From Vicinamibacterales bacterium (lineage in GTDB: Bacteria > Acidobacteriota > Vicinamibacteria > Vicinamibacterales > UBA8438): a stretch of 64,000 nucleotides of DNA. Both the position numbers and the translations under genes were made by a program. A model generated the notes under the pieces. The model was not told the DNA's origin. It was given only the letters and a program-made list of their open reading frames with translations, and made no database searches. The stretch spans positions 2,032,323-2,096,322 of the forward strand of contig OZ252042.1 of assembly GCA_965247955.1 (NCBI GenBank), read 5' to 3'. Of the stretch, positions 13,713-30,273 are shown in pieces (position 1 is the first letter of the stretch; each line of letters opens with the position of its first letter).

Positions 13713-13740
13713 AGGGCCCCACCCGGAGTTTCGTCTGATA

Positions 13741-13852
13741 TTCGCCCGGACCAGTGGTCCGGACCGCCTGGTCCGGACTGGTCCGCCAGGGCGAAAAACC
13801 CCCTGAGTTTATTGAGGTGGTGGGCGGACCAGCGGTGGTCCGCGGCTGGTCC
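13741..13852. repeat. Array of palindromes built on the half-site CGGACC/GGTCCG
   Basis: ccggaccAGTggtccgg, ccggaccGCCTggtccgg, cggacTGgtccg, gcggaccAGCGGTggtccgc. The outer arms ttcgccc...gggcgaa enclose the first three. Confidence 0.7.
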
Positions 13853-13887
13853 TTGTCAGGGCGCACGCCTTTCTTCACCCTCGATAC

Positions 13888-14622
13888 ATGGATTCCAAGC
13901 AGGCGGCGCGGCTGCGCGCCCTCACGTTGGTCGACATCCTCCCGTCGGTCGCCGCGCGGTGGACCGACGCCCAGGCGCTGACGGCGCAGGCCGGCGAGGT
14001 AGAGATTCTTGTTTACGGGCCCATCGTCAGCGAGCGGGAAGCGGCCTTCGCGCGTGAGTTCCTCGGCATCGAATCGGCCACGGGCGAAGCGTTCCGGTCG
14101 GCGCTTGCCGCGATCCGCGGCGACGTGACGGTCCGGATCAACTCCCCGGGCGGCAACGTCCACGAGGCGTCGACGATGCTGACCGCGCTGCAGGAGCGCC
14201 GGTCGAGCGGCGCGGCGGTCAACGTGGTGGTCGACGGGCTGGCGGCGAGCGCGGCGAGCGTGCTGCTCACGGCCGCAAGCACGGTCCGGATCGCCGCGTT
14301 GGGCATCGTGGTGATTCACGAGATGCGCATGACGCCCGTTGCGGTGACCGGGACAGAGATGCGGCGGCTGGCGGATTTTCTCGATGAAATGAACGAGCGG
14401 TTCACGGCGTTGTACGCCGCACGGATGAAGCGGAACGACGCCGACGTGCGGGCGCTGCTGGCTAACGAGACGTCTTTCTCGGCGACGCAAGCGGTCGAGG
14501 TCGGCCTGGCGGACGAGGTGATCGCCGTCACGCAACCGGCGGCGACGAACACGACGGACACGGCGGTGACGGCACTCTTCCGGTGCCGCAACCTGCGCCT
14601 GGCGGCGCTGACGGAGATCTAG
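13888..14622 (+). CDS. ClpP-like head maturation protease (S14 family)
   Basis: VRINSPGGNVHEAS...GLAASAASVLL...VVIHE motifs. Position between portal and capsid. Confidence 0.85.
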   Translation: MDSKQAARLRALTLVDILPSVAARWTDAQALTAQAGEVEILVYGPIVSEREAAFAREFLGIESATGEAFRSALAAIRGDVTVRINSPGGNVHEASTMLTALQERRSSGAAVNVVVDGLAASAASVLLTAASTVRIAALGIVVIHEMRMTPVAVTGTEMRRLADFLDEMNERFTALYAARMKRNDADVRALLANETSFSATQAVEVGLADEVIAVTQPAATNTTDTAVTALFRCRNLRLAALTEI

Positions 14623-14632
14623 GGGGAAGCAG

Positions 14633-15657
14633 ATGAGATTCGATCCGAAAAAGCTGGCGGACCTCGTGGACGAGGAATCGCGGCTGAAACATGCACTGAC
14701 CGAGGTGAGCACGAAGCTCACCGGCCTCAAGGCCACCGACAAGACGTGGGACGAGGCGCGTCAGTCGGCCTACCTCATGGACCAGCAGGAGCATCAACAG
14801 CTGACGCGGGAGCTCCAGACGGTGCGCGCCGAACGGCAGCGCTGCGAGCTGCAGGAACCCGCGGCGGCCAAGCGGGCGTCAGTGACCGCGTTCGCGCGGT
14901 GGCTGCGCGGCGGGGAGACGGCGCTGGAAGCCCACGAGCGCGAGACCTACCTCGGCGAGATCACCGACGGCACGATCCCCGGTGGTGGCGGCCAGACGTT
15001 CCGCCTGCAAGCCGCGTCGGCCTCCGATGCCACCAGCGGCCAGGAGGCCGTACAGGAAGAGATCCCGCCGCGCATCATCGACCGGCTCGCCTTCTACGGC
15101 GGCGTCTCCCGCATGGCGCAACAGTTCCTGCCCGGCACCGGCGGCGAGTATCGAATCATGCAGATGGATGCGGCCAGCCAGGAGGGCGAGATCCTGGCCG
15201 CGCAGGATACCGCGGTGACCGAGCAGGCGCTCCCAAATATCGGCGTGCAAACGTTCGGCGCCAAGACGGCCAGCTCGAAGCCGATCCTGCTCACCCGGGA
15301 ACTCCAACAGGATGTCGTGTTCGACATTCAGACCTATGTCGAGCGGCAGGCGGTCCGACGGATGGGCCGGATCTGGAACAAGGCGTTCACGACGACGCAG
15401 GCGGGGACCGGGATGCCGGTCGGCGTGGTGTCGTCGGCGACGCCGGGGATCACCGCGGCGTCCCAGACGGCGATCACCTGGACCGAGCCGACAAACCTCA
15501 TCTACGCCGTCAACCGCGCCTATCGCGAGGCGGGCGAGCTGGGTGAGGGTGGGTTCGGCGGTGAGGGCGGCGGGATGCTGGGCTACATGCTCTCCGACGA
15601 TGCCGAGAAGGCGATGCGCGTGTTGGTCGATGCGGACGGCCGGCCGCTGTGGGTGCC
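14633..15657 (+). pseudogene. Major capsid protein (HK97 family), 5' portion, interrupted by an inserted island
   Basis: N-terminal coiled-coil delta-like region, then capsid core. Phage-like sequence stops after ...DADGRPLWVPS and continues as low-GC unrelated codons (FEFCKSLITKMLF...). Confidence 0.8.
15644..15657. repeat. Left copy of the 14-bp direct repeat ccgctgtgggtgcc (att core)
   Basis: Identical 14-mer at 25114-25127. A further 10-mer tccactcacg follows at 15715-15724 versus 25129-25138. Confidence 0.75.
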
Positions 15658-15826
15658 GTCGTTTGAGTTCTGTAAGTCATTGATTACAAAAATGTTATTC
15701 GCATGTTGGCCGCGTCCACTCACGTTTTCACATGCAATTGCTTGATGGGAACTACGCGGACCTCTGGGGACCCCTGAGCGGTATGGGCGTTGAGGCCCTG
15801 AAACCGCAGCCAAGGTTGCGAACGTC

Positions 15827-17330
15827 ATGAAGACGCCGCTGCTCGACTTCGTGCATGGGTTGGAGATCACGCAAGGTCGGTTGGCCGGCCAGCGGTTCGC
15901 GGTGTTGCCGTGGCAGCGTCGCTTTCTGCGGGGCGCGTTCCGGGCGGGTGTGTCGAGCGCCGGGCTGTCGGTGGCGCGGGGCAACGGGAAGACGACGCTG
16001 GTGGCGGCGATTGCGGTGGCCGCGCTCGTCGGCCCGCTGGTCCAGGTGCGCGGCAAGGTCGTGATCGTGGCGTCGAGCTTCCAGCAAGCGCGGATCGCGT
16101 TCGAACACATTCTGGCGTTCGTGCGGCCGTGGATCGCCCACGAGCCGAAGCGGTTTCGGATCTGGGACACGGCGCAGCAAGCCAGCCTTGCGGATCGGGA
16201 GCTGGGCGCGCGGGTGCGCTGTCTGGGCAGCGATCCGCGTCGAGCGCATGGCCTGGCCCCGGCGCTGGTGTTGGCCGACGAGCCGTCGCAGTGGCCGCCG
16301 AGCACGAGCGCGCGGATGCACGCGGCGCTGCTGACGGCGCTCGGGAAGATTCCGCACAGTCGGCTGATCGCGTTGGGGACGCGGCCGGCGGATACGGGCC
16401 ACTGGTTCTCGACGCTGCTCGGCGGCGGGCCCGGCATCTACGCGCAGTGTCACGCAGCCGCGCGTGACGATCCCCCATTTCAGACACGGACGTGGCGGAA
16501 GGCCAACCCGTCGCTCCGCTCGATGCCCGATCTCGAAGCGGCGATTCGGACAGAAGCGGATCGCGCGACGACGGACGCCTCGCTGCTCCCGGCGTTTCAG
16601 GCGCTGCGGTTGAACTTGGGTACCTCGAACACCGAACGGGCGGCGCTCTTGGCGGCCGCCACGTGGGAAGGCCTTGAGGCCGACGACGCGCCCCGCGCTG
16701 GCCCGTGCCTCTGGGGGATCGACGCGGGGACCACGGCGGCCATGACGGCGGCCTGTGCGTTCTGGCCCGAGAGCGGCCGCCTCGAAACCGTGGCAGCCTT
16801 TCCGAGTGCGCCGACACTGGCCGCACGCGGGCTGCAGGACGGCGTGGCCGATCTGTATCAACAGGATGGCCCGGCGGGGCGAACTCGTGACGCTGGGCGG
16901 CCGTGTCGTGCCACTAGGTGACTTCGTGCGCGTCGTCCGGGATCGCTTCGGGGTACCGGCGGCGATTGTCGCCGATCGGTGGCGCGAGGGTGAGCTGCGC
17001 GACGCGCTCGACGCGGCGGGGTTGCCCCGCTGCGCGTTCCTGCTGCGTGGCCAAGGCTACAAGGATGGGGCGGAAGATGTGCGGGCGTTTCGGACGGCGT
17101 GTCTGACGGGCCAGGTGAAACCGGCCGGGTCATTGCTGCTCAGGGCCGCCATGCGCGAAGCGACGGTGATTGCCGATCCGGCCGGCAACGAAAAACTCAG
17201 TAAGGCGAGTGAGGGCGGGCGACGGTTCCGGGCGAAGGACGACGCGGTGGCGGCGGCGATTCTGGCCGTCAGTGCCGGCGTGCGGCATGAGCGGCCCCGG
17301 CCGTCGCGCGTCTATCTCGGGGTGGCGTAA
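15827..17330 (+). pseudogene. Second-type terminase-large-subunit-like gene (copy B1), frameshift near 16860
   Basis: LPWQRRFLRGAF...ARGNGKTTLVAAIA (Walker A)...LVLADEP (Walker B). ORFs 15827-16921 and 16755-17330 join as ...DLYQQ/MARRGELVTLGG..., matching the intact paralogue at 25400-26908. Confidence 0.75.
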
Positions 17331-17611
17331 TGGCGGGCACCCGTGGCCGAACGGTGTATCGAGATCGGCGCTGGGCGCACGTCCGACGTGCCGTGCTCAA
17401 CCGGGCCGCGTGGCGCTGCGGGGTGTGCGGCGGTGTGGGGCGGCTTGAAGTCCACCATCGGCAGCCACTGGCTGTGGGCGGGCCCGCCTTTGCGATCGAC
17501 AACCTGGAGGTGCGCTGTCGGCGGTGTCACCTCACGGCGCATCATCCGCCCCGACACACCCCGTGGGATCAATTGGTGAACGAACTCTTGAACGAAGGGA
17601 TGCAGACATGA
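17330..17611 (+). CDS. HNH endonuclease (copy B1)
   Basis: WRCGVCG...LEVHHRQPL...NLEVRCRRCH. TAATG overlap with the upstream gene. Confidence 0.8.
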   Translation: MAGTRGRTVYRDRRWAHVRRAVLNRAAWRCGVCGGVGRLEVHHRQPLAVGGPAFAIDNLEVRCRRCHLTAHHPPRHTPWDQLVNELLNEGMQT

Positions 17612-18640
17612 CGAACGGACAGAAGCTCCAACTACGACTGAGTGAGATCAGGCAGTCGCTCAGCGAACTCTCGGGGCTTGACAGCCCGACGGACGCACAG
17701 CGGGCAGAGATGGCCACGCTGTCGACGGAATACCCCACGATCGAGACGCGCTGGCGGGCGGCCACCATTGCCGAGGCCGACGAACCAGAGACGCGCGCCG
17801 ACGACGGCGAAGACACCGAGCGGCGGGCGCTCGTCGAGCGGGCCGAACTGCGGAGCTACCTGCACGAGGCGGCCACCGGCCGCGCCGTCACCGGGGCCGA
17901 GTCGGAACTGCGCGCGGCCGTCTTTGGCGAACACGCCCGCGAGGGACTCGTGCCGTGGGAGGCCTTGCTGCCCCACGAGGCACGGGCGGATACGGCGACA
18001 ACGGCCCCCACGGACGTAGGGGCCTCGCAAGCCAGCATTCTCGGCCGGGTTGTTCGTCGGCACGGCCGCCAGCTATCTCGGTGTCAGCATGCCGCAGGTG
18101 AGCGTCGGCGAAGTCAATTACCCGGTGCTCTCGGCCGGCGTGTCGCCGGAGATGAAAAGCAAGGCCGCCGTGAAGGATGCCGAGGCCGCGACGATCAGCA
18201 CGACAGTCTTGGAACCACGTCGGCTCACCGCCCGATATTTGTTCAGCGTCGAAGACACGGCGCGGCTGCGCGGCATGGAAGAGGCGTTACGTCGGGATTT
18301 GAGTGGGGCGCTCGGGGAAAAGATCGACGATCAGATTTTGAATGGGAACGGCACGGCCCCGAACGTCAACGGGTTCGTGCACGCGCTCACCGCCCCGACG
18401 GCCCCGACGGCGATCGCCACCTTCGCGGACTTCGTCGGGGCGGCGAGTCAGGCGGTGGATGGCCGCTACGCGCGCAACCTCACGGGCGTGAAGACGCTCG
18501 TCGGGGCTGCGACGTACGCCTTGGCCGGCACACTCATGAACACGAGTGGTGACGTGGCCTTGAGCGACTACCTGATCGCGCGCAGCGGCGGGTTCCTCAC
18601 CTCGGCGCTGATTCCGGCTCCGCCGGCGAGCGCGTTTACG
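17608..18640 (+). pseudogene. Second-type major-capsid-like gene (copy B1): frameshift near 18047, 3' end truncated
   Basis: Coiled-coil N-terminus. ...ILGRV/FVGTAASYLGVSMPQVSVGEVNYPVL...RRLTARYLFSVEDTARL...DDQILNGNG is capsid-like. Similarity and GC drop at ~18640. Confidence 0.6.
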
Positions 18641-18795
18641 ATGAATTGTGGAGCGGAGACGCTACCACGTTACGAGGAGAGGTCAGCCGCTTCATCCTAT
18701 CTGCCCGAGGCATTCGCATCAGATCCTGAGCGACTCGCCAGTCCCGCCGTGTTTTCCGTCGCTCCAGACGGCACATGCTATTGTGAAGGCACGCG

Positions 18796-19338
18796 ATGAG
18801 GACTTTCGTGGGTCGCTTTCTGATACCCCTTGCGCTGTCAGGTGTACTGGTTGTTGCGCCCACACTGCGGGTGCTCTGCTACAGCTCATGCGTCCTCGAA
18901 GAGGGTCCGATGTCAGACACGATAGCTGCCTCGGATGCAGCGCCCGAGTGTCACAAACGCGACAGCCGTCACGATTCCACACGTGAATCCGGTTCTGCAC
19001 CCCCGCAAGGCGATTGCACGCATGAGGGTGACTCGTTCTCATCCGGCCTGTTAACTTCCGCGAAGTTAGTCGGAGATGACGCGCTGAGGATACCGGTGAT
19101 CGCGACGATCGCCGGCGGCCCACTTCGCGATCCGCTCGTCCGACATTCGTCGGGACTCCCGATCGAGACAGAGCGGCGATCGGTTACTCGGACGATTCCT
19201 CACTCCACTGCGGATCTGATCCGTCCACGCGCCCGACGCGCCTTCGGCGTCGGTGTCGTCGTTCCAAGTCACGAAATCGTAGGGCCCTCGGTCAGAAACT
19301 GTGACGGCCGGTCACCGCGCCGTCTCCAATTGGAGTGA
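18796..19338 (+). CDS. Putative secreted Cys/His-containing protein upstream of copA
   Basis: N-terminal signal-like helix FLIPLALSGVLVVAP. ...APECHKRDSRHDS...QGDCTHEGD. The extent of true coding is uncertain. Confidence 0.35.
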   Translation: MRTFVGRFLIPLALSGVLVVAPTLRVLCYSSCVLEEGPMSDTIAASDAAPECHKRDSRHDSTRESGSAPPQGDCTHEGDSFSSGLLTSAKLVGDDALRIPVIATIAGGPLRDPLVRHSSGLPIETERRSVTRTIPHSTADLIRPRARRAFGVGVVVPSHEIVGPSVRNCDGRSPRRLQLE

Positions 19339-19341
19339 CTC

Positions 19342-21066
19342 ATGGGTAGAAATTTTTCGAACGCGGCTGCCCGGCGACCATCGCGCCGGACGGTCGTCAA
19401 AGGACTGGCAGTCGGTGGCGCGGTAGCCAGTCTCGGCCTGTGGCGACCGTCCGCGTGGGCCTCCACCGATGTGGGGAGGCAACCGACCGCGCTCTCAGGG
19501 ACGGACTTCGACCTCACCATCGGCGAGAGGCTGATGGACTTCACCGGCTCACCCCGCCTCGCAGTCACCGTGAACGGTTCAGTTCCGGCTCCGACGCTAC
19601 ACTGGCGCGAGGGTGACTCGGTCACGCTGCGTGTGACGAACACACTCAGCGAGGACACATCGGTTCACTGGCACGGCATCTTGCTGCCAGCCAACATGGA
19701 CGGCGTCCCGGGGCTGAGCTTCAACGGGATTCGGCCGGGAGAGACGCACACGTATCGGTTCACAGTCCGGCAAGGGGGAACCTACTGGTATCACAGCCAT
19801 TCAGGGTTCCAGGAGCAAAAGGGGATGTACGGCGCACTCATCGTCGACCCCAGTGAGCCCGAGCCCTTCGGCTACGACCGTGACCACGTCGTGATGCTGT
19901 CGGACTGGACCGACGAGAACCCCGATCGGGTGTTCGCGAAACTCAAGAAGCAGGCCCACTACTACAACCTCCACCAGCGAACGCTCGGTGACTTCGTGCG
20001 GGATGTTCGCGGGCGCGGATTCGGACCGACCGTATCTGATCGACTGGCCTGGGGCGAGATGCGGATGACCCCGACCGACCTGGCGGATGTGACTGGCGCG
20101 ACATACACCTATCTGATGAACGGACACGCGCCCAACGGGAACTGGACGGGCCTCTTCCAGCCCGGTGAGCGCGTCCGGTTGCGGTTCGTCAACGGAGGAG
20201 CGGCAAGCTACTTCGACGTTCGGATTCCTGGTCTGAAGATGACGGTAGTGGCGGCTGACGGCCAGCACGTTCACCCGGTCACTGTGGACGAGTTTCGCAT
20301 CGCATCAGGCGAGACCTTGGATGTTCTCGTCAAGCCAGCGGGGCAGGACGCGTTCACGATCTGTGCACAGTCGATGGATCGGACAGGTTACGCCCGAGGC
20401 ACGCTGGCGGTTCGGGAAGGACTGAGCGCGCCGGTTCCCGAGGTCGACCCCCGACCCTTGCTCACGATGGCCGATGTGGGGCACGAGGTCCACGCCGGTC
20501 ACGAAATGGCCGCGATGAAAGGACACTCCGGCAGCGGTGCCATGCAATCCCATCCGGCAAGTGAGCACGGCAACCCTCTGGTCGATATGCAGACAATGCT
20601 GCCCGCGTCTCGTCTCGACGACCCAGGGATCGGCCTCCGTCGAAACGGTCGCCGCGTGCTGAGCTATGCGCATCTCAAGAGTCTCTTTGCCGATCCGGAC
20701 GGTCGCGAGCCAAGCAGGATCGTCGAGCTGCATCTGACAGGGCATATGGAGCGGTTCGTCTGGGCGTTCGACGGCATCAAGTTCTCCGATGCCGCTCCGC
20801 TGCAACTTACGTATGGTGAGCGAATGCGTGTCGTCCTGGTCAACGACACGATGATGGCTCATCCGATTCATCTGCACGGGATGTGGAGCGACATCGAGGA
20901 CGACGACGGTCAGTTCCACCTCCGCAAGCACGTGGTGGACATGCCGCCCGGCACCAGACGCAGCTTCCGCGTACGGGCCGATGCACTCGGTCGGTGGGCC
21001 TTTCATTGTCATCTGCTCTATCACATGGCAGCCGGGATGTTCCGGGAAGTGCGGGTTGACGCATGA
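19342..21066 (+). CDS. copA: Multicopper oxidase, copper resistance protein A
   Basis: Twin-arginine signal SRRTVVKGLAVGG...AWA. Copper-site motifs HWHG, WYHSH, HPIHLHG, HCHLLYHMAAGM. Confidence 0.9.
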   Translation: MGRNFSNAAARRPSRRTVVKGLAVGGAVASLGLWRPSAWASTDVGRQPTALSGTDFDLTIGERLMDFTGSPRLAVTVNGSVPAPTLHWREGDSVTLRVTNTLSEDTSVHWHGILLPANMDGVPGLSFNGIRPGETHTYRFTVRQGGTYWYHSHSGFQEQKGMYGALIVDPSEPEPFGYDRDHVVMLSDWTDENPDRVFAKLKKQAHYYNLHQRTLGDFVRDVRGRGFGPTVSDRLAWGEMRMTPTDLADVTGATYTYLMNGHAPNGNWTGLFQPGERVRLRFVNGGAASYFDVRIPGLKMTVVAADGQHVHPVTVDEFRIASGETLDVLVKPAGQDAFTICAQSMDRTGYARGTLAVREGLSAPVPEVDPRPLLTMADVGHEVHAGHEMAAMKGHSGSGAMQSHPASEHGNPLVDMQTMLPASRLDDPGIGLRRNGRRVLSYAHLKSLFADPDGREPSRIVELHLTGHMERFVWAFDGIKFSDAAPLQLTYGERMRVVLVNDTMMAHPIHLHGMWSDIEDDDGQFHLRKHVVDMPPGTRRSFRVRADALGRWAFHCHLLYHMAAGMFREVRVDA

Positions 21067-21917
21067 AGGGAACGAGGATCGTGCGCGCTGTGGCAGTGGC
21101 CGTTTTCGTCGCCGTATGGTCAGCGCTGCCCGATGCCCAGCAGGATCGACCGACCGCTTCTGCCGAGCACACGACCCACAAACGTGCTGGTCAGGAGCAG
21201 ATCGAGCCGACGACGCCCATCCCGCCGATCACGGAGGCCGACCGGGCTGCGGCGTTTCCGGACGTCGAGCCTCACGCGATTGGCGACAACGCGGTGTACA
21301 CGTTTGTTTTGCTCGACGAGCTGGAATGGCAGGGGGACCCGTCTGCGGGCGGGCTGAACTGGGACGCCAAGGGGTGGGTCGGGGGCGACCGAAATCGCCT
21401 GTGGTTCCGAGCGGAGGGCCAGGCAGATGACGGAAATCTCGACGATGCTGAGGCTCATGTGTTGTACGGGCGAGCCATTGCCCGCTGGTGGGATGTCGTG
21501 GTGGGTGTCCGCCAGGATGTGCGCCCCGGTCCCGCTCAGACCTGGGCCGCGTTCGGCGTGCAGGGGGTGGCTCCGTACTGGTTCGAGGTGGAGGCGACCG
21601 GCTATGTTAGCGACGGCGGACAGACAGCGGTTCGGTTGGAGGCGGATTACGAGCTACTGCTAACTAATCGCCTCGTGCTACGGCCACTCGTCGAGTTCAA
21701 TCTGTATGGCAAGAGCAACCTGGAACGAGGAATCGGCTCCGGTCTCAGTAGCGCGGACGTCGGCGTGCGGATGCGGTACGAGGTTCGTCGTGAGTTGGCT
21801 CCGTATGTCGGCGTGACATGGCACAACTCGTTTGGTGAGACGCGAGAGCTGGCTGAAGCGTCCGGCGACGGCGCATCTCGCCTGCGATTGGTCGCGGGTC
21901 TGCGGCTCTGGCACTGA
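21063..21917 (+). CDS. copB: Copper resistance protein B (outer membrane)
   Basis: ATGA overlap with copA. ...LDELEWQ...WVGGDRNRLWFRAEG...GVQGVAPYWFEVEATGYVS...GVRMRYEVRRELAPYVGVTW matches the CopB family pattern. Confidence 0.85.
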   Translation: MKGTRIVRAVAVAVFVAVWSALPDAQQDRPTASAEHTTHKRAGQEQIEPTTPIPPITEADRAAAFPDVEPHAIGDNAVYTFVLLDELEWQGDPSAGGLNWDAKGWVGGDRNRLWFRAEGQADDGNLDDAEAHVLYGRAIARWWDVVVGVRQDVRPGPAQTWAAFGVQGVAPYWFEVEATGYVSDGGQTAVRLEADYELLLTNRLVLRPLVEFNLYGKSNLERGIGSGLSSADVGVRMRYEVRRELAPYVGVTWHNSFGETRELAEASGDGASRLRLVAGLRLWH

Positions 21918-21935
21918 GCCGACCGACACCATGAA

Positions 21936-21973
21936 TTGTCCTGGACTCTGGACCTCACTCCAGGGTGCATACT
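21936..21973 (+). promoter_or_regulatory. MerR/CueR-type operator-promoter-like dyad
   Basis: Imperfect inverted repeat cctggact-N9-actccagg lying between a -35-like tggact and a -10-like catact with a long (~20 nt) spacer. Confidence 0.4.
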
Positions 21974-21983
21974 CTTCGTAGAG

Positions 21984-22100
21984 ATGTCGGACAAGAGGTA
22001 TCGCATCGGGGAACTGGTAACGCTCACCGGCTTAACTCCTGACGCGCTGCGCTTCTACGAGCGGCAAGGCGTGCTCGATGAGCGAACCCGCTCAGCTAGG
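21984..22100 (+). pseudogene. MerR-family regulator, N-terminal HTH fragment only
   Basis: MSDKRYRIGELVTLTGLTPDALRFYERQGVLDE... then similarity is lost. No dimerisation helix or metal-binding Cys. Confidence 0.6.
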
Positions 22101-22142
22101 CATGATCCGGGATCATCCGGGATCATCCGGGATGACCCCGGG
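22101..22142. repeat. 10-bp tandem repeat (gatcatccgg) x ~4
   Basis: catgatccgg gatcatccgg gatcatccgg gatgaccccgg, read directly. Confidence 0.8.
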
Positions 22143-22606
22143 ATGCGACTCGCGCGAGGACAACAACTTAGGGGGATCGGGCGACACAATTGTGGTGCAA
22201 GACTTTTGATCCATGAAAGTCCCTTCAAACGGCGTTTTCTGGGCGTTTTTGGGTGTGGCCGGGCCGGAGCCAGGTCATCGAGCTCGCCGCCGGTGGAGAC
22301 GGCCGCCGACACCGTCGGTGCGGCCATCGAGTCGGAAACGGCGCGCCTCGAGACGGAGACGCGCGGGCTGGTGGCTGATGCCGAAGCCGCGCTCGACGAC
22401 GCGCGCCCGGCGATCGACGAGCTCGATGACGAAGATGCCGCCGGACTGCGGGCGGACGTCGAGGCTGTGGAGTCTTCACTCGCCGCGGTCGAATCGGACC
22501 TTCAGGCTGAAGCCTATGCGGACGCCAATCAAGGCGCCCGGTCCGCCTTGTCCGCGGCCCGCGACATCGGGAGCTCGCCCAATGGGGCGCGGATTGCACC
22601 CGTGTC

Positions 22607-23539
22607 GTGTTCGGCAACCGGCTCGACACGCGCCCCGAAGACCCGGCGTCCCTGCGCAGCTTGGTGGCCCAGCGCACGCCCGTCTTGGTCATCATCGACA
22701 CTTTGACGCTCTTGGCGAGCGTGCTGGGCATTCGCGATCTCCACGGGGCCGGCGATCTCGGAGTGGCCTTAGCGGGCTTGGCCGCGCTCGCGCGAGACTC
22801 GGACGCGGCGATTGTCATCTTGCACCACAACCGCAAGAACCCGAGCGGCACGTCGACGACGGGTGACAAGTTCGGCGAATACCGCGACTCGACGGCGATT
22901 GGTGCGGCGGCCGATATGATCGTGTCGCTCAGCCCGGAATCGGGGGCGCGAACCCGCCGACTCACGCTCAAGGGGCGCTGGTTCGAGCCGACGCTCATCG
23001 TCACGCTCGGCCCCGAGGGCTACACGCTGCAACCGGCCGACGAGCCGACCGCCACGGACGAGACGACGGACACGCCCGCGCCACGCCCCTCTGACCAACG
23101 GGTGCTGCTGCACCTGCTCCGCTGCGACCCACAAGCGCGCCCCGGTGCAGCGGCGCTCGCGGAGGCTCTCGATTGCTCCGGCCGACGCTATCAGGATCTC
23201 CGCAAGGCGCTCGATGGGCTGGTTGATGCTGGCAACATCGACTACGACCAGCGACCCGGCACAACCAAGAAGCGTGATCAGGGGTATGCGCTGACGGCCC
23301 AAGGGCGCTCCCGAGCCGAGCACATGCGAATCGCACTGCTGAATGCGTGTTCCGCGATTTCCGCCAATGGGAAATTGAGCGGAAATCAGTCGGAAACCGA
23401 ATCGGAAATCGAGTCTGACACCAGTGGATTTCCATTTCCCGATTTCCCACAGGGGGGGGTGGGCGGAAATGGAAATGGAAATCCACTTAAGAATGCCAGT
23501 GTGGGCGGCCCCGATGGCGACGACTTCAGCCGGTTCTGA
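22607..23539 (+). pseudogene. RecA-like ATPase (AAA_25/RepA-type) of integrative elements, N-terminally truncated, with C-terminal winged helix
   Basis: Walker B-like PVLVIIDTLTLL and ...AIVILHHNRKN... are present but no Walker A upstream. C-terminal ...RVLLHLLRC...LAEALDCSGRRYQDLRKALDGLVDAGNI. Confidence 0.55.
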
Positions 23540-23567
23540 GCGCGTCTCGCTCAAGGGTGGCCTCACC

Positions 23568-23756
23568 GTGTCGGTTCAGGCGCTTCAGATCCTCTGGGAT
23601 CTCGAAGGCCGAGGGTTACAGTGCTGGCTCGATGGGGGCGTGCTCTGCATTGGCCCGACTGACATGATCACGCCCGACGATCGCGTGACGATCACCGACT
23701 ATCGTGATGAGCTGTACGCCCTGCTTGCGCCGAACGAGCGGGTGGCCTCAGCGTGA
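23568..23756 (+). CDS. Small hypothetical protein next to the integrase
   Basis: VSVQALQILWDLEGRGLQCWLDGGVLCIGP...ITDYRDELYALL. Start (GTG 23568) uncertain. Confidence 0.4.
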   Translation: MSVQALQILWDLEGRGLQCWLDGGVLCIGPTDMITPDDRVTITDYRDELYALLAPNERVASA

Positions 23757-23771
23757 GCGTAACGGGACCAC

Positions 23772-24965
23772 CTACCCGCTGAGGTAGGCCGCCCAGTCGT
23801 CCATCAGCCGGCGGCGGCGCTCGAATAAATCCGACCGCGCGTACGCCGCCTCGACCTTGTTGGGGTTGGTGTGCGCGAGCGCGGCTTCGATGACGTCGCG
23901 GGGATGATTCGTGCGTTCGGCGGCCCAATCCCGAAAGCTCGACCGAAAGCCATGTGGCACGGCCGCAATGCTCAATTTTTTGGTCCACCTCGACAGCGCG
24001 TTGTCAGACAGCGGCTTCCCCTGCCGGGGGAAGACGAGCCTGCTCCTGTCGCCCAGGCTCCGCGCGTCGGTCAGAATCGCGACGGCCCGTTCGCACAGCG
24101 GAACGCGGTGCTCACGCTGCATTTTCATGCGCGGGGCGGGGATGGTCCACACGGCCGCGTCCACGTCGACTTCGTCCCACCGGGCCAAGCGCACTTCTCC
24201 CGACCGGGCCGCCGTGAGCACCAGGAACTCAAACGCGAGCTTGATGGGGACCAAGGCAGCGGACGCTCGTACGGCCGCGATCGCGCTGGCCACCGCACTG
24301 TGGGACAGGGCGGGCATGTGGCGCTTTACGAGCGGCTTTCGCGGCCACGCCTGGGTCAGTGCGTCGCCGGTAGGATTGTCCAGCCGATAGCCTTGAGCCA
24401 CGGCCCACTTCATGACCGCCCCGATCTTCCGGCGCACGCGCCGCGCCGTGTCGGGCTTGGCGTGCCAGATCGGTGTGAGGATGGCGAGCACGTCGGCCGT
24501 CGTTATCTCGGAGACCACTCGCGTGCCGATGTGCGGATGGGCGTAGGTCTGAAGCCGCGCCTCCCAATCCCGCGCAGTCTGCGCGTTGCGCCAGCCGGGA
24601 CGGTGGAGCGCAATCACCTTGGCGGTGGCTTCCGCGAACGTGGGCACGCCCCGCGCAAGGTGCCGCTCAGCGAGTGGGTCTCCACCCGACCGGGCGAGCT
24701 TCCGGTTCACGAGCGCCTGTTCGCGCGCCTCGGCCAGCGACACGACCGCGCAGCCGCCGAGCCCGAGGGTCCGGGACCGGCCTCGGATCACGAGCCGTTG
24801 TTCCCAGCGGCGGGCGCCCGAGGGGTCGACGAGCAGATACAGGCCGTTGCCGTCGCAGTAGCGCCCGGCCTCGGCGACGGATCGGACAAAGGCGGCCGAA
24901 AGCGCCTTGTCGGGATGCCGCCCGCGTGGCTTGGTCCTGCGAGCTGTCTTGGGGTAGGTGTTCAC
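23772..24965 (-). CDS. int: Tyrosine recombinase/integrase, P4-type
   Basis: N-terminal ...YCDGNGLYLLVDPSGARRWEQR... (arm-binding domain). Catalytic region ...LTAARSGEVRLARW...HGFRSSFRDWAAE...EAALAHT...AYARSD (R..H-x-x-R..H..Y). Confidence 0.9.
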   Translation of the reverse strand: MNTYPKTARRTKPRGRHPDKALSAAFVRSVAEAGRYCDGNGLYLLVDPSGARRWEQRLVIRGRSRTLGLGGCAVVSLAEAREQALVNRKLARSGGDPLAERHLARGVPTFAEATAKVIALHRPGWRNAQTARDWEARLQTYAHPHIGTRVVSEITTADVLAILTPIWHAKPDTARRVRRKIGAVMKWAVAQGYRLDNPTGDALTQAWPRKPLVKRHMPALSHSAVASAIAAVRASAALVPIKLAFEFLVLTAARSGEVRLARWDEVDVDAAVWTIPAPRMKMQREHRVPLCERAVAILTDARSLGDRSRLVFPRQGKPLSDNALSRWTKKLSIAAVPHGFRSSFRDWAAERTNHPRDVIEAALAHTNPNKVEAAYARSDLFERRRRLMDDWAAYLSG

Positions 24966-25113
24966 AAACTATTCAACCAACAATTAATTTTATGAATATA
25001 GCGAAAGTAAGAGGAACAATCAAGACGATGAGTAGCGAAGATGTGTGTTTATTAAGCAATCTTACAAGAAATATGGCAGATGTTCTTGGAACGCCATGGA
25101 CAGCGAAAGCCTA

Positions 25114-25127
25114 CCGCTGTGGGTGCC
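25114..25127. repeat. Right copy of the 14-bp direct repeat ccgctgtgggtgcc
   Basis: Identical to 15644-15657. Contiguous 25-mer ccgctgtgggtgccttccactcacg here. Confidence 0.75.
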
Positions 25128-25248
25128 TTCCACTCACGAGGGGGCACCGTCGATGCTCAACGGCTATCCCTACGTCGTCAATGGCCACATGGACAGCGTG
25201 GCCGCAGGGAAGGTGCCCATCCTCTTCGGCAACTTCAGCTACTACGGC
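25114..25248 (+). pseudogene. Major capsid protein (HK97 family), internal 3' fragment
   Basis: PLWVPSTHEGAPSMLNGYPYVVNGHMDSVAAGKVPILFGNFSYYG continues the 14633-15657 reading frame logically. It ends again in low-GC unrelated sequence at ~25249. Confidence 0.7.
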
Positions 25249-25399
25249 AATAGGACAGGAATAGCCGTAACGCATTGCAGTAAATGCACTTATAAGATCG
25301 ATATGTCGTGTGAGGCTACGGTTCCGTCTACATGGGCCACTGCGGGGACCCCTGAGCGGCTTGGCTGTGCCGCGTGAGGGACCGGCGGGGGGAGTTGCG

Positions 25400-26908
25400 A
25401 TGCAACACACACGGACGCTGCTCGACTGGATCGGCGCGTTGACGGTGACGCAGGGGCGGCTCGCCGGGCAGCCGTTCGTCGTGCTGCCGTGGCAGCGGCG
25501 ATTCCTGCGGGGCGCGTTCGCGGACGGCGTCTCGAGCGCGGCCGTGTCGATGGGCCGGGGCAACGGCAAGTCGGCGTTCACGGCGGCGATTGTGACGGCG
25601 GCCATCGCGGGGCCGTTAGCGCGGGCGCGGGCCGACGTGGTGTGCGTCGCGTCGAGCTTCACGCAGGCGCGGATCATCTACGAGCACACCCTGGCGTTCC
25701 TGCAGCCGTGGCTCGAGACCGAGCCGTCCCGGTGGCGCATCCAGGATTCGGCGAACCGCGCGGTCATCGAGGATCGGACAACGGGGACGCGCGTCCGCTG
25801 CATCGGCTCGGACCCGAGGCGGGCGCATGGCCTCGCTCCGCTGTTGGTGTTAGCAGACGAACCGGCGCAATGGCCGGTGAACATCTCCGACCGGATGCGG
25901 GCCGCGCTCGACACGGCGCTTGGGAAGATCCCGCAGAGCCGGTTCATCGCGCTCGGGACCCGGCCGGCCGACGACGGGCATTGGTTCGCGCACCTGCTCC
26001 GTGGAGGGCCGGACGTCTACCGCCAGTGTCACGCGGCCAGGCGCGATGATCCGCCGTTCAGGAAACAGACATGGCGGCGAGCGAATCCGTCCTTGCCGCT
26101 GATGCCAGATCTTGAAGCGGCGATTCGGACGGAAGCCAAACGGGCGACGCGGGACTCGGCGCTGCTCCCGGCGTTTCAGGCGCTCCGCTTGAACTTGGGC
26201 ACCTCGGACACCGAACGGGCGGCGCTGCTGTCGGCCGGGACATGGGAGCGCACCGAGGGCGACGCGGCCCGTCAGGGACCGTGCATCTGGGGTATCGACG
26301 CGGGCGCGACGGCGGCCATGACGGCGTGTGCCGCCTTCTGGCCCGACACCGGCCGCTTGGAGACCGTCGCCGCGTTTCCGAGTGAACCGTCGTTGGCCGA
26401 CCGGGGCCTGCGGGATGGCGTGGGGGATCTGTATGCGGACATGGCGGTGCGTGGCGACCTGGTCACGCTCGGCGGGCACGTTGTACCGCTCGACGCCTTC
26501 CTGCGCGTCGCGCGGGATCGGTTCGACACGCCGACGGCGATTGTGGCGGATCGCTGGAGAGACGGCGAGTTGCGGGATGCGCTGGACGCGGCTGGCATTC
26601 CACGCTGCGCGTTCCTCTTGCGGGGCCAAGGCTTCAAGGATGGGGCGGAAGACGTGCGGGCGTTTCGGACGGCGTGCTTAACCGGCCGCGTCACACCTAT
26701 CGTGTCGCTGCTCTTGCGGGCGGCCATGCGCGAAGCGACGGTGATCGCCGATCCGGCTGGCAACGAGAAGTTGGCGAAGGCCACCGAAGGCGGGCGGCGG
26801 TTCCGCGCGAAGGATGACGCGGCGGCGGCGGCGATTCTCGCCGTCAGCGCCGGCGTCCGACACGAGCGCCCGAGGCCGTCGCGCGGCGTCTATCTCGGCG
26901 TCGCGTAA
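25400..26908 (+). CDS. Second-type terminase-large-subunit-like protein (copy B2, intact)
   Basis: RBS ggggggag plus ATG 25400. GRGNGKSAFTAAIV (Walker A), LVLADEP (Walker B). Collinear with copy B1 without a frameshift. Confidence 0.8.
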   Translation: MQHTRTLLDWIGALTVTQGRLAGQPFVVLPWQRRFLRGAFADGVSSAAVSMGRGNGKSAFTAAIVTAAIAGPLARARADVVCVASSFTQARIIYEHTLAFLQPWLETEPSRWRIQDSANRAVIEDRTTGTRVRCIGSDPRRAHGLAPLLVLADEPAQWPVNISDRMRAALDTALGKIPQSRFIALGTRPADDGHWFAHLLRGGPDVYRQCHAARRDDPPFRKQTWRRANPSLPLMPDLEAAIRTEAKRATRDSALLPAFQALRLNLGTSDTERAALLSAGTWERTEGDAARQGPCIWGIDAGATAAMTACAAFWPDTGRLETVAAFPSEPSLADRGLRDGVGDLYADMAVRGDLVTLGGHVVPLDAFLRVARDRFDTPTAIVADRWRDGELRDALDAAGIPRCAFLLRGQGFKDGAEDVRAFRTACLTGRVTPIVSLLLRAAMREATVIADPAGNEKLAKATEGGRRFRAKDDAAAAAILAVSAGVRHERPRPSRGVYLGVA

Positions 26909-27201
26909 TGGCCGGGCGACGGGGACGGACGGTGTATCGGGACCACCAATGGACGGGGGCGCGATCCCGTGCGTTGGCACGCGCGGCGTACCGGTGCCAG
27001 GTGTGCGGCGGCGCGGGACGGCTCGAAGTGCACCATCGGCGGCCGCTGGCTGTGGGCGGGGCCGCCTTTGCGATCGACAACCTGGAGGTGCGCTGCCGAC
27101 GGTGTCACTTCGCGGCGCATCATCCGCCCCGACACACCCCGTGGGATCGATTGGTGAACGAACTACTGGTCTACCGGGTCCAAGTCGGACCCCGTAGGTG
27201 A
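26908..27201 (+). CDS. HNH endonuclease (copy B2)
   Basis: YRCQVCG...LEVHHRRPL...NLEVRCRRCH. TAATG overlap. Confidence 0.8.
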   Translation: MAGRRGRTVYRDHQWTGARSRALARAAYRCQVCGGAGRLEVHHRRPLAVGGAAFAIDNLEVRCRRCHFAAHHPPRHTPWDRLVNELLVYRVQVGPRR

Positions 27202-27217
27202 ACGAAGGGATACAGAC

Positions 27218-27422
27218 ATGACGACTGGACAACGACTGCAATTGCGGCTGAGTGAGATCCGGCAGACGCTCAACGAGCTGTCGGGACTCGACACCCCGAC
27301 GGACGCACAGCGTACCGAGATGGCCACGCTGGCGACGGAATACCGCGCGAAGGAAACCCAGTGGCGGGCGGCCACCATCGCGGAGGCCGACGCGCCGGAG
27401 ACGCGCGCCGATGATGGCGAAG
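27218..27422 (+). pseudogene. Second-type capsid-like gene (copy B2), first ~68 codons only
   Basis: MTTGQRLQLRLSEIRQTLNELSGLDTPTDAQRTEMATL... parallels 17608-17812. Similarity ends exactly after ...ETRADDGE. Confidence 0.6.
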
Positions 27423-30269
27423 GGGCCGATCAGCCTGGTCATTGCCGCCATCGCGGCGGTGTATCTGGCGTGGAAGCACTGGGACGTCATTGAGGTGATC
27501 GTGGGCCGGGTCTTCTCGGTCGTCAAAACGTGGCTGGTCGACAAGTTCGGCGGGATGGTGGTGTTCGTCAAAGACGCGCTCACGAGAGTCATTGGGTTCT
27601 ATGTCCGCTTGTATGGACCAATTTTCACAGCGGTGCGCAAGGTCTACTCGGCCATCAAGACATGGCTGGTTGACTATTTGATGGCGGCCGTCGAGCAGAT
27701 CAAGGGGGCGGTGGCGGCCGTTGTGGGGTTCTTCCGGCGCGCGAAACAGGAGGCCGACACGCGCCGGATGCGTGAGGAAGTCAAGGCTGCCGCGGACAGG
27801 TTCACGGAGATTGGGAAAGAAGCGAAGGCAGTGGAAGACCGCCTGCGCGGCTTCGGCAAGCGAATCAAGCTCAACCCGGCGGCCTTCCGAGAGATGTCGG
27901 CGCGTGCCGCGGAGATGCGCGCCGAAGTGGACCGCCTCGGGACGGGCGCGCCAGCCAGCCTCAAACGGCTTGAGGCGGCACTCGACACGGCCCGGAAGGA
28001 AATGGGACTGACCGCGCAGTCGGCCAGCACCTATACCGAGGCGCTGGCGAAGGTACACGAGGAGGTCGCCGGCATCACCGAGGCCATGGGCACCGAGATC
28101 CGCGCGGAGCAGAAGCTGGGCGTGTCACTGGAGGACCTCTCGAAGAAGTTCGGGATCTCCACCGAGGCCCTGAAGCTCTACCTGGACTCCCTCGATGAGG
28201 CTGACACGCAGGTCGGCGAGTTGAGTGACGCAGTCCAGACGCTCGTCGATCGGCTCCGAGGCACGGACACGATCCAGGCCGCCCACGACTGGGCCGCCGC
28301 CCTGGAACAGGTGGGGGGCCTGACGACACTCACCGACGACGAGACCACGCAGCTCGTCGGCACGCTCGAGACGGCGATCACCAAGTGGCGCGCGCTGGGC
28401 GAGGCCGTGCCCACCGAGATCTACCAGCGATTCATCGAGGCGACGACGCGCCTGCGCCAGGTGCCGCTGGCCGATCTGGGCCTCATCGGGACGCGGCTTG
28501 ACCCCGAGCAGTTCTTCAAGCCTCTTCAGCAGCTGACGCTCAGTGAAATCGGCCCGATCGGCATTCCGCTGGAGCCAGAAATCACGCCACGATTCCGCAC
28601 CAAAATTGAAAGCGCCTTTACCGGCTTCGGCGCGGAGATCGGGCAGACGTTCGCGCGGGCGCTGGAAGGCGGCGGGCAATGGCTCGGGGCGATCCAATCG
28701 CTCGGCGTGCAGGCGGGCGACCGGCTCGGGACGTTCCTGTCCAAGGGCCTGGGCAAGCGGCTAACCGAAGAGACCAGTGTCTTCTCGAAGGGGATCGGCA
28801 ACTTCTTTGGCAAAGCGATGGGACAGGCGATCCCCGTCATCGGCCCGCTCATTGGCGCCGGCATCGGGAAGCTGTTCGGAGCCTTCACGAAGCCCTCGGA
28901 GGCCGAGCTGGCTGCCCGGCAGCAGGTCGCCGACTACCAGCACACCATCATTGAGGGACTGTCTTCGTCGCAGCTGGCCGAAGCGGCCGCGGCGGCGCGC
29001 GGCGCGTGGGCGGGCGACGAGCAGGGCGCCCAGTTCGTCATCGGCGTGCGTGATGCGTACGTCGCCGCGGGCCGCAGCGCCGCCGCGGCGATCGTCGCGC
29101 GCTACTGGGCCGCCTCCAAGGACGGCGGGCCCGAGGCCGTCGCCGCCCTCGAAGCGCAGATCGAGGCCGTCGTTCAGGTGGGGCGCGAACAGCAGCAGCG
29201 GCTTGCCGAGCTCGGCGCGCTCAAAGAGGCCGGCCAGGCCGCGTTCAATTCGGCGCAGATTGAGCCGTACATCGAAAAGCTGCTCGAAACCGGCACGATC
29301 ACCCAGCAGCAAGCGAGCCAGTTGCGTGGACTGGCCGACGAGGCGCACGTCGACTACCAGACGATGCAGCAGGCGGCGGAGAAATACGGCGTCGAGCTCT
29401 CGGCGCTCGGGCCGGCCTTCGACCAGGCACGCATCTCGGAGGCGGCGGCCGTCATCGTGAAGGACTTTGAGCTGCTCACGCAGGAAGGCGCGAACGTCAA
29501 CGGCGTGCTCCGCGGGATGCAGGACGAAGTGCAAGACCTGGTGTCAGATGCGCTCACGGCCGGCGTCGCCATCCCTGAGGGGATGAGGCCCATCATCGAA
29601 TCGCTCATCGAGCAGGGCCGGTTGACGGACGAGAACGGCGAGAAGCTAACCGACGTCTCGCAGCTCACCTTCGCCGAACCGCTTGCGGCGAAGTTCGACA
29701 CGCTCATCGAGAAGCTGACCGCGCTCATCGAGAAGATCACCGGCCGCGGCGGCATCACCGAGGCGATTGCGGGCATTCCCCGCGATGTGGATGTCGGCGT
29801 CGACGTGCGCTACCGCGAACATGGCCGCCCGGACGACTTCGGCGAGATGGAGATCGCCTTTGCCCAACACGGCACGCCCTTCCGGCACTTTGGCCGTGGG
29901 ACGCCGGCCGTGCTGCATGGGCTCGAGCGCGTCATGACGGGGATGGAAGGGCGGGGCATTGCGGCCGCGCTCGGGCGCATCCAGCAGGGGCTCGGGGCCA
30001 TTGCGGATCTGAGCGGCGTGCGGGCGCTCGCCGAGGGCGGGTTGGTGACGCGGCCGACGCTGGCCCTGCTCGGCGAGCGCGGGACCGAAGCCGTGATTCC
30101 ACACCACGCGCTCGCCGAGGCCGGCGGACGTGCGGCGGCGGACCGGCAGGCCCTCGATCGCCAACTGGACGAGCTGCGCGAGCTACGGCGCGTGCTGAAA
30201 CGGCAGGAGGCGGACTTGCCGTTCCGTCTGGGCCGCGTGGTGCGGGATGCCGTCGTGGAGGGCCGGTAA
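27411..30269 (+). CDS. Tail tape measure protein, 5'-truncated (junction at 27422/27423)
   Basis: ~950 aa. Hydrophobic repeat segment, long coiled-coil Ala/Glu/Leu-rich body, C-terminal ...AEGGLVTRPTLALLGERGTEAVIPH motif. No native N-terminus. Confidence 0.75.
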   Translation: MMAKGPISLVIAAIAAVYLAWKHWDVIEVIVGRVFSVVKTWLVDKFGGMVVFVKDALTRVIGFYVRLYGPIFTAVRKVYSAIKTWLVDYLMAAVEQIKGAVAAVVGFFRRAKQEADTRRMREEVKAAADRFTEIGKEAKAVEDRLRGFGKRIKLNPAAFREMSARAAEMRAEVDRLGTGAPASLKRLEAALDTARKEMGLTAQSASTYTEALAKVHEEVAGITEAMGTEIRAEQKLGVSLEDLSKKFGISTEALKLYLDSLDEADTQVGELSDAVQTLVDRLRGTDTIQAAHDWAAALEQVGGLTTLTDDETTQLVGTLETAITKWRALGEAVPTEIYQRFIEATTRLRQVPLADLGLIGTRLDPEQFFKPLQQLTLSEIGPIGIPLEPEITPRFRTKIESAFTGFGAEIGQTFARALEGGGQWLGAIQSLGVQAGDRLGTFLSKGLGKRLTEETSVFSKGIGNFFGKAMGQAIPVIGPLIGAGIGKLFGAFTKPSEAELAARQQVADYQHTIIEGLSSSQLAEAAAAARGAWAGDEQGAQFVIGVRDAYVAAGRSAAAAIVARYWAASKDGGPEAVAALEAQIEAVVQVGREQQQRLAELGALKEAGQAAFNSAQIEPYIEKLLETGTITQQQASQLRGLADEAHVDYQTMQQAAEKYGVELSALGPAFDQARISEAAAVIVKDFELLTQEGANVNGVLRGMQDEVQDLVSDALTAGVAIPEGMRPIIESLIEQGRLTDENGEKLTDVSQLTFAEPLAAKFDTLIEKLTALIEKITGRGGITEAIAGIPRDVDVGVDVRYREHGRPDDFGEMEIAFAQHGTPFRHFGRGTPAVLHGLERVMTGMEGRGIAAALGRIQQGLGAIADLSGVRALAEGGLVTRPTLALLGERGTEAVIPHHALAEAGGRAAADRQALDRQLDELRELRRVLKRQEADLPFRLGRVVRDAVVEGR

Positions 30270-30273
30270 GCCG

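Follow-up and report, generated by a model that had tools for sequence, protein, structure and literature searches.

Phage satellites are, to our knowledge, known almost only from Proteobacteria and Firmicutes, and our literature search found no relevant paper on phage satellites in Acidobacteriota. Here we analyze a 64,000-nucleotide window of the genome of a Vicinamibacterales bacterium (Acidobacteriota; contig OZ252042.1, positions 2,032,323 to 2,096,322), in which two related elements, E1 (about 15658-25113) and E2 (25250 to ~27429), interrupt the major capsid gene of a prophage, referred to below as the helper. Judged by gene content and boundaries, E1 and E2 are likely to be decayed helper-embedded, capsid-forming phage satellites from a family of 9- to 10.6-kb elements, with E3, found elsewhere in the same genome, as an intact member. 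Coordinates are those of the window unless a genome position or another locus is named.

The satellite P4 re-sizes the capsid of its helper with Sid, Psu, and Delta and has a primase; the present elements differ in encoding their own capsid, portal, and terminase. They share with P4-like satellites, in the parts of Rousset et al. (2022, PMC9122126) drawn on here, a P4-type integrase, some tRNA sites, and a variable anti-phage slot, occupied here by SIR2-like proteins and methylases.

Two other groups are closer. Helper-embedded phage-inducible chromosomal islands (HE-PICIs) are small satellites with an integrase and AlpA that reside inside helper late genes, the capsid gene being the commonest target (Tommasini, Mageeney, and Williams 2023, PMC10111431). 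The portions of that paper used here describe several sites in several late genes per helper lineage, co-orientation with the late operon, the absence of attP replacement sequence, off-target chromosomal copies, helpers that are often truncated, and two satellites recorded in one helper. They also report a model element, 11capE, that lacks terS, the capture of helper late-gene clusters, integrases that form a single HE-PICI clade, a replication zone with primase and ori, and an attP in which a doubled arm motif, tgTGTATTGCantgTGTATTGCa, recurs at fixed spacing; the examples named there are enterobacterial. Capsid-forming PICIs (cf-PICIs; de Sousa et al. 2023, PMC10085698) span about 10 to 14 kb, carry int, alpA, terL, HNH, capsid, prohead protease, and portal genes without tail or holin genes, and presumably assemble capsids of their own, needing a helper for tails only. 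Type A cf-PICIs are placed exclusively in Proteobacteria, with variants in Firmicutes, and Acidobacteriota are not mentioned (PMC10085698).

Results

Two elements in one prophage capsid gene

The source genome is a single 2.49-Mb contig, 98% complete, with 56% GC, and window positions 1 to 37000 form a prophage-type island of 67% GC. The 5' part of the helper capsid gene (14633-15657, plus strand; PF05065, E=3e-19; phrog_10) covers codons 1 to 342, is 95% identical to the intact 437-residue protein P0001 over residues 1 to 344, and ends in the left member of a perfect 14-bp direct repeat, CCGCTGTGGGTGCC (15644-15657), which occurs once in the capsid genes of the related prophages L086 and L087. 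The right copy of this core (25114-25127) opens a segment (25114-25249, plus strand) that carries helper capsid codons ~341 to 386 (PLWVPSTHEG...FGNFSYYG), corresponds to P0001 residues 333 to 386, and ends at the E2 junction. Joined across E1, the capsid protein is collinear with its 437-residue homologues at 95% identity and full coverage, with about 51 C-terminal residues missing. L086, an uninterrupted relative of the helper, matches both sides of E1: its positions 5480-11031 correspond to window 10106-15660, and 11015-11157 to window 25114-25256 at 95%. The two matching stretches of L086 overlap by 17 nucleotides, including the 14-bp core, indicating that the intact prophage runs straight across the E1 site. 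At the left attachment (att) site of E1, the helper capsid frame enters a low-GC arm and meets a stop after 29 foreign codons; attP carries no replacement sequence.

E2 begins directly after CTACTACGGCA, which ends at 25249, 122 bp beyond the right core of E1. The original prediction, made from the DNA letters without database searches, had placed two related elements about 120 bp apart in one capsid gene, and the measured distance, in the 3' third of that gene, bears this out. In L080, an independent assembly, an element fills the E2 site from the same nucleotide; its arm is homologous, and its TerL is 93% identical. The E2 site is empty (CTACTACGGCATTCGG) in L081, L086, and L087, as is the E1 site in L086, L087, and L080. 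The single occupancy of L080, together with the empty sites elsewhere, indicates that E1 and E2 entered the same capsid gene independently.

The two elements contain collinear segments that had been proposed to be paralogous. Indeed, a global alignment of 15766-17812 with 25344-27422 gives 75.7% identity over 2043 aligned bases with three small indels only, far beyond chance for a repeat, and genome BLAST and repeat searches pair 15837-17812 with 25416-27422. Both segments have ~70% GC and open with the predicted 16-mer, GGGGACCCCTGAGCGG, at 15766 and 25344; the latter position had been put one base early, at 25343. Each continues from a motif, GGGGACCCCTGAGC, into a terminase gene (TerL), a gene for an HNH endonuclease (PF01844, with E=4e-08 for each copy), and the start of a capsid gene that encodes a coiled-coil N terminus, with the TerL stop and HNH start overlapping as TAATG at 17328-17332 and 26906-26910. 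Matches to phrog_9, PF01844, and PF05065 support these assignments, which the original prediction had made. A third copy, E3 (genome 1655435-1660398), is intact and 88% identical to copy 2. As had been argued earlier, this is neither a recent duplication nor an assembly repeat; the copies are two diverged, related mobile elements.

The intact element and its relatives

E3 (genome 1.655-1.665 Mb) encodes, in order, TerL, HNH, the major capsid protein (MCP), an S78 prohead protease, a 104-residue open reading frame (ORF), portal, AlpA, cargo, and an integrase on the opposite strand. Its TerL matches phrog_9 (E=7.8e-56), with Pfam TerL_ATPase just below the cut-off; the capsid matches PF05065 at 37.6 bits, the protease PF04586 (E=2e-20), the portal PF04860 at 49.7 bits, and the AlpA protein that follows the portal PF05930 (Phage_AlpA, E=6e-18). 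The integrase is a P4-type tyrosine integrase with Arm-DNA-bind_3, Phage_int_M, and Phage_integrase domains. The cargo, about 2.6 kb of lower GC, comprises a SIR2_2 protein and an ORF of no assignment. This slot varies across the family, holding SIR2_2 in E3, N6_N4 DNA methylases in L006 and L007, and copA/copB in E1.

Among relatives whose loci reach that far, the order TerL-HNH-MCP-S78 protease-small ORF-portal(-AlpA) is kept in L005, L006, L007, L035, L036, L037, L079, L070/71, L073, L076, and L008. L038 carries the same genes, its portal match lying ~7 kb farther downstream, and in L072 the TerL-HNH pair points the opposite way from the other genes. Sequence inspection identified AlpA homologues in L005, L006, and L007. 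L005 and L006 come from one Vicinamibacterales metagenome-assembled genome (MAG), L007 and L036 from another, and L008 from a Rhodospirillaceae MAG; L070 to L076 are metagenome and IMG/VR contigs, the TerL-profile scans having returned five metagenome and four IMG/VR loci. The original prediction held that the module lacks portal and protease. This is true of the window copies and not of the native unit, which carries both in E3 and about 12 relatives; their absence from the window reflects truncation rather than native make-up. The relatives, for which the original prediction had proposed a survey of stand-alone TerL-HNH-capsid units beside integrases, come with protease and portal.

Elements of the family measure about 9 to 10.6 kb. 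Exact direct repeats with tRNA 3' ends bound L070/71 (10.6 kb), L008 (10.5 kb), and L072 (10.2 kb), and the ORF lists inside att-bounded members contain no tail-tube, tape-measure, or lysis genes. TerS was recognized in no member, consistent with the earlier claim; no ORF lies between the att arm and TerL in E-type elements, and the ORFs upstream of TerL in relatives are not conserved and have no Pfam match. The ORF lists of E3, L005, L006, L007, and L071 contain no primase-replicase, and Pfam searches of the small ORFs of L037, L038, L035, and L071 returned HTH or Dit-like matches only, with no primase. The Dit-like match is a 162-residue protein of the tRNA-Ser-integrated member L071 (9203-9691; PF21821, E=8e-17), encoded between AlpA and TerL; it is the only tail-related gene seen in the family and is possibly an adaptor to helper tails. 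In L073 (5611-8955) and L008 (14544-15314), the small ORF runs on into a long fused C-terminal extension (1114 residues and repeat-rich in L073), which could be a decoration or adaptor domain.

The satellite TerL proteins are only 25 to 30% identical to the helper TerL, and no TerL of a deposited phage is more than 28% identical to them. By these comparisons, the satellite head genes form a lineage separate from that of the helper. The best (28%) matches, ON170149, ON170171, ON170322, and ON170310, are unannotated Ralstonia records of 12.9 to 18.7 kb that may themselves be satellites or fragments.

Attachment arms and integration sites

Each element has a ~100-nucleotide low-GC arm left of the motif and a ~150-nucleotide low-GC arm beyond the integrase start, and by eye the arms of different elements are diverged but related. 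The left arm of E1 (15658-15765, 44% GC) resembles by eye that of a tRNA-integrated relative, L036r, and its right, integrase-proximal arm occupies 24966-25113 (36% GC). The left arm of E2 (25250-25343, 48% GC) has, by eye, a homologue at the same junction in L080. The original prediction had described a different low-GC segment before each copy; low GC is correct, and "different" is not, as these are att arms that have diverged yet are homologous between elements. Assembly junk or foreign filler was also considered and is ruled out by this homology, by the position of the segments exactly between core and conserved block, and by their integrase-side counterpart.

Four cores are recognized in this one helper lineage: two in the capsid gene, one in a tail-completion gene, and one in a tail-tube gene. 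In L007 the element is cleanly inserted in a Tail_completion_gp17 gene, with TGACGTATC as its 9-bp repeat. The left junction of L005 falls within a capsid gene, after TACTACTACGGC, a site that L007 shows empty in its own capsid gene, and the right one within a Phage_TTP_12 tail-tube gene at CTCGTTYTC, a gene that is intact in L007. The genes missing between the two L005 junctions are the expected product of recombination between satellites at two sites. All four cores are unoccupied in L086 and L087, and the capsid YYG and tail-tube cores are unoccupied in L007. The head module and AlpA point in the direction of the helper late genes at each of the six late-gene junctions, and the integrase is on the opposite strand.

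E3 has the same integrase and right arm as L005 but lies in a host intergenic region at TCRTTCT; in an E3-type attP junction, ...GCTAGTATCTCGTTCT would be joined to the left arm. The genome contains no tail-tube gene close to the L007 type, which bears that target, only two partial matches below 50% identity, and we read the E3 location as an off-target event. Off-target and tRNA sites are represented by E3, L006, L036, and L079. A tRNA gene lies directly left of the element in L036 and L079, and in L076 a tRNA gene lies a few kilobases beyond the portal. The helper capsid gene has received other DNA as well: in L081 (ENA ERZ25766727 contig), an IS256-type transposase (Transposase_mut; 10890-12300) sits in the same gene about 15 nucleotides past the E1 core. 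Further along, at 13232-13393, that contig has the leader and 5' fragment of a satellite TerL gene fused into a late gene, with an AlpA ORF joined on.

The integrase clade represented in these elements occurs in 53 of 401 genomes of the order, often in at least four copies each. Within it, the tail-tube and tail-completion integrase types are sisters (support 100/100), and the E1 integrase groups with two non-satellite islands. Sampled integrase loci adjoin ordinary chromosomal or other island genes in 28 of 30 cases, none with a tRNA gene on the integrase side; these flanks rule out the idea that the whole clade is late-gene-tropic. The P4-type clade is highly expanded in this taxonomic family of Vicinamibacterales (up to 111 first-look candidates in one genome), and integrase neighbors include VirB4/VirB11-like ATPases and further integrases, suggesting a large island repertoire.

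A private motif upstream of TerL

The motif that marks the left edge of the conserved block stands at 15766-15779 in E1 and 25344-25357 in E2, both on the plus strand. Across the 2.49-Mb genome, its form GGGGACCCCTG is found at three places only, in every case ahead of a TerL copy, and GGGGACCCC is a near-perfect palindrome. Within the family the motif lies 60 to 90 nucleotides upstream of TerL and is kept down to 45% TerL identity, be it preceded by att-arm DNA, by a non-coding (GA)n stretch, or by an ORF of no relation; the helper prophages L086 and L087 lack it. Conservation regardless of upstream DNA and confinement to the element argue for a cis-acting site. We regard the motif as a candidate satellite-specific packaging (cos/pac) or regulatory site for the element's own TerL and HNH.

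Two other explanations of the motif were discarded. The original prediction had taken the peptide encoded here (GPLSG...) for the tail of a cut upstream gene, and we considered whether this peptide, ending GDP-stop, might come from TerS. In L035, L037, and L038, however, the upstream ORFs are unrelated or absent and the DNA motif persists, including where the upstream DNA is non-coding. A cos site shared with the helper is not supported, given the absence of the motif from L086 and L087.

Decay of E1 and E2

The E1 TerL is a pseudogene (15827-17330, plus strand) with a 1-nucleotide insertion near 16859; its pieces span 15827-16921 and 16755-17330. By tblastn, E3 TerL residues 3-367 and 370-524 lie in two frames, and there is one in-frame TGA. 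The HNH gene (17330-17611, plus strand; PF01844, E=3.9e-08), whose start overlaps the TerL stop, is followed by a capsid pseudogene (17608-18622, plus strand) that is frameshifted near 18050 and ends at residue ~343 of 412. Residues 1-154 and 151-343 of the E3 MCP are found in two frames, with none beyond by tblastn, and PF05065 falls on the second frame. Both E1 frameshifts had been called correctly from the sequence.

AlpA, protease, and portal gave no tblastn match in E1. According to Pfam, the rearranged interior (18640-23770, plus strand) instead contains an ORF without assignment (18796-19338), copA (19342-21066; a multicopper oxidase with a TAT signal), copB (21063-21917), a MerR-type stub starting at 21936, and an AAA_25 RepA-like fragment (22607-23539), all on the plus strand. 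The copA-copB-MerR stub block (18640-22606) stands in place of protease-portal-AlpA, so that metal-resistance cargo sits in a decayed satellite within a decayed prophage. Homologues of the AAA_25 fragment lie beside other integrases of the same clade; as this fragment is common to generic islands, E1 may be a hybrid of two elements using the same att site. The E1 tyrosine integrase (23772-24965, minus strand) is of P4 type, has a 397-residue open frame with Arm-DNA-bind_3, Phage_int_M, and Phage_integrase domains, and is 62% identical to that of E3. E1 is dead or nearly dead and keeps this open integrase frame and intact att cores.

E2 retains an intact TerL, as predicted (502 residues from the ATG at 25400; 25400-26908, plus strand; 92% identity to E3 TerL), an HNH gene (26908-27201, plus strand; PF01844, E=4.1e-08), and the first ~70 codons of the satellite capsid gene (27218-27429, plus strand; E3 MCP residues 1-72 at 89%). 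At a deletion junction, ~27423-27430, capsid sequence gives way to the 3' part of the helper tape-measure gene (27423-30269, plus strand; phrog_58 and other tape-measure families). Residues 621-1283 of the 1327-residue L086 tape-measure protein match window 28014-30128, and L086 11158 to ~17000 is without counterpart in the window. Besides the remainder of E2, the deletion took ~51 codons from the end of the capsid gene, the genes for head-tail and tail-tube proteins, and the 5' part of the tape-measure gene, so that about 5 to 6 kb of helper late DNA was lost. E2 is dead or nearly dead. No E2-type integrase was seen, as every E2-type copy is truncated or at a contig end.

The helper prophage and its genome

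Ahead of its capsid gene, the helper carries TerS (9014-9334), TerL (10092-11870), portal (12020-13712), and ClpP protease (13888-14622) genes, all on the plus strand, with TerL and portal both split. Downstream lie the tape-measure gene, tail-region ORFs without family matches, a holin, and an endolysin. In L086 the order is HNH, TerS-like ORF, TerL, portal, ClpP, MCP (437 residues), connector, head completion, gp10-like, tail completion gp17, tail tube, chaperone, and tape measure. The interrupted prophage is HK97-like and defective. The locus as a whole is a graveyard: E1 is rearranged, E2 is deleted and fused, and the helper TerL and portal are split.

Part of the helper portal (12864-13712) is a C-terminal HTH-like region with PHROG transcription-regulator matches. 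The portals of L080, L086, and L087 show the same faint HTH_3/HTH_23 matches, so the portal-HTH fusion is conserved and no local accident. Window positions 1-8400 and 30217-36700 are 87 to 99% identical to a second prophage of the same genome (1426547-1466703). The central head-to-tape-measure block (8.5-30 kb) differs from that prophage and is of the L086 type, as though modules had been swapped. In L086 the lysis genes precede HNH/TerS, in contrast to their place at the right end of the window prophage.

Megablast with window 14600-28000 found no match among deposited phages, Rfam and tRNA scans of the window gave no matches, and the helper capsid type is nearly absent among the species-representative genomes of the order. 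Islands of 65 to 70% GC occur in the genome at 1.4225-1.4675 Mb, 1.655-1.660 Mb, and about 1.95-2.07 Mb; they are prophages and islands related to one another and to elements of high-GC relatives. Given their presence in a 56% GC genome, mobile DNA seems to cross hosts of very different base composition. Other genomes of the family are mostly 4 to 7 Mb, compared with 2.49 Mb here.

Discussion

Like the HE-PICIs in the portions of PMC10111431 considered here, the present elements insert into late genes, use multiple sites per helper lineage, and leave no replacement sequence; off-target copies, truncated helpers, two satellites in one helper, and the lack of terS seen in 11capE are also shared. 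They differ from that account in being acidobacterial rather than enterobacterial like its named examples, in an integrase that sits at the far end and reads opposite to the late genes, in the lack of any primase or replication zone that we could find, and in that TerL, HNH, MCP, protease, and portal are a private, conserved core rather than an occasional capture. Further, the HE-PICI arm motif TGTATTGC (allowing at most one mismatch) is absent from the reconstructed attPs of E1, E3, L006, and L007. With cf-PICIs the family shares the integrase, the AlpA regulator, TerL, HNH, capsid, protease, and portal, as well as the absence of tail and holin genes from the element; it differs in lacking terS, a primase-replicase, and a recognizable head-tail adaptor, and in its size, 9 to 10.6 kb against a median of 14 kb. 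Under the SatelliteFinder model (PMC10085698), in which AlpA, MerR, or Stl can serve as the regulator, 7 of 11 core components are clear, or 8 if the small ORF is a connector, compared with 9 in the weakest cf-PICI type. The missing TerS and primase, the missing arm motif, the opposite integrase, and the 7 of 11 components lead us to place the family in neither group.

Two elements integrated site-specifically at the cores CCGCTGTGGGTGCC and CTACTACGGCA, co-oriented with the helper late operon. If E1 and E2 descend from functional satellites, an integrated element would split a helper late gene, and helper late transcription would then read into the satellite head module. Int and AlpA would excise the element, restoring the helper gene, and its own TerL and HNH would package satellite DNA via a private site, possibly the GGGGACCCCTG motif. 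Such satellites would build and fill their own heads, with the helper supplying tails, lysis, and probably induction and replication. More tentatively, and at somewhat less than even odds in our estimate, these elements could represent an undescribed Vicinamibacterales satellite lineage that combines its own capsids and terminase, as in cf-PICIs, with life in helper late genes, as in HE-PICIs. Arm and integrase subtypes would serve at least four cores plus tRNA sites, a head or tail gene would be held hostage until excision, packaging would be TerS-free via GGGGACCCCTG, and the lineage would ferry defense and metal-resistance cargo across GC-distinct hosts.

Several observations weigh against the satellite interpretation. 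Satellite status is drawn from gene content and boundaries only, and TerS and primase/Rep, present in known cf-PICIs, are missing. The 104-residue ORF between protease and portal has no Pfam or PHROG match. Its AlphaFold model is all-helical (pLDDT 70) and weakly resembles HK97 gp6 (TM 0.46-0.50, E=4.6, non-significant), which has the joint-highest TM-scores among the PDB matches listed; no head-tail adaptor candidate was found. Few genomes carry the elements (6 of 104 in the taxonomic family), and L005 is clearly a hybrid. In addition, the integrase clade is a generalist, its 28 other sampled loci having chromosomal-gene flanks and not late genes; on the tree the satellite integrases are clustered (4 changes versus 8.9 expected) and not monophyletic. 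The integrase-proximal part of E1, with its AAA_25 fragment, resembles the generic islands of this clade.

This last resemblance is what would be expected if the elements were generic islands carrying a captured helper-type head block, either passive or a head-module exchange cassette, that makes no capsids of its own, with late-gene sites reflecting att-core similarity. The integrase clade is abundant and mostly found with non-phage islands, the AAA_25 module by the E1 integrase is common to such islands, and HE-PICIs have been described as capturing clusters of helper late genes (PMC10111431). However, the six-gene head block is kept in order and content, with open frames, from Acidobacteriota to a Rhodospirillaceae MAG at 45 to 95% TerL identity, which argues for selection on function. 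The 25 to 30% TerL identity to the helper shows that the block is not a recent capture from this helper, and the conserved private site is absent from helpers. We consider this origin unlikely.

The truncated and rearranged window copies, the mosaic and decayed helper, and head genes of standard HK97-type families would also suit remnants of ordinary complete temperate phages, nested or in tandem by polylysogeny, that later lost tail and lysis genes and form no satellite family. Yet in at least nine independent loci the element terminates within 9 to 10.6 kb, at att repeats, at tRNA genes, or at the integrase, and has no tail or lysis genes. Three tRNA-bounded members have exact terminal repeats at 10.2 to 10.6 kb, and no deposited phage TerL exceeds 28% identity, making loss from complete phages improbable. 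An assembly artifact, by which the capsid gene would look interrupted and the modules duplicated only because the long-read MAG contig was chimeric or wrongly joined, is brought to mind by the single metagenome-type contig and by its 67% GC island, set in a chromosome of 56% GC. With 24% divergence between the copies, though, no repeat was collapsed; an integrase lies in E1, whose ends show matched att arms and an exact target-site repeat, the E2 junction recurs in the independent assembly L080, and L007 offers an analogous clean insertion. We judge an artifact very improbable. The interpretation of E1 and E2 as decayed satellites remains the one we favor.

If this interpretation is correct, late-gene embedding and private capsids would be recurrent solutions that evolved far outside model systems, in a phylum that ranks among the most abundant in soil. 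It would account for "broken prophage capsid genes" and for stand-alone TerL-HNH-capsid blocks that pipelines would label defective prophages, and the att cores and empty-site comparators would be searchable in soil metagenomes and viromes. The cargo slot, with its SIR2-like proteins, methylases, and copAB, marks these elements as carriers of defense and resistance genes in soil bacteria.

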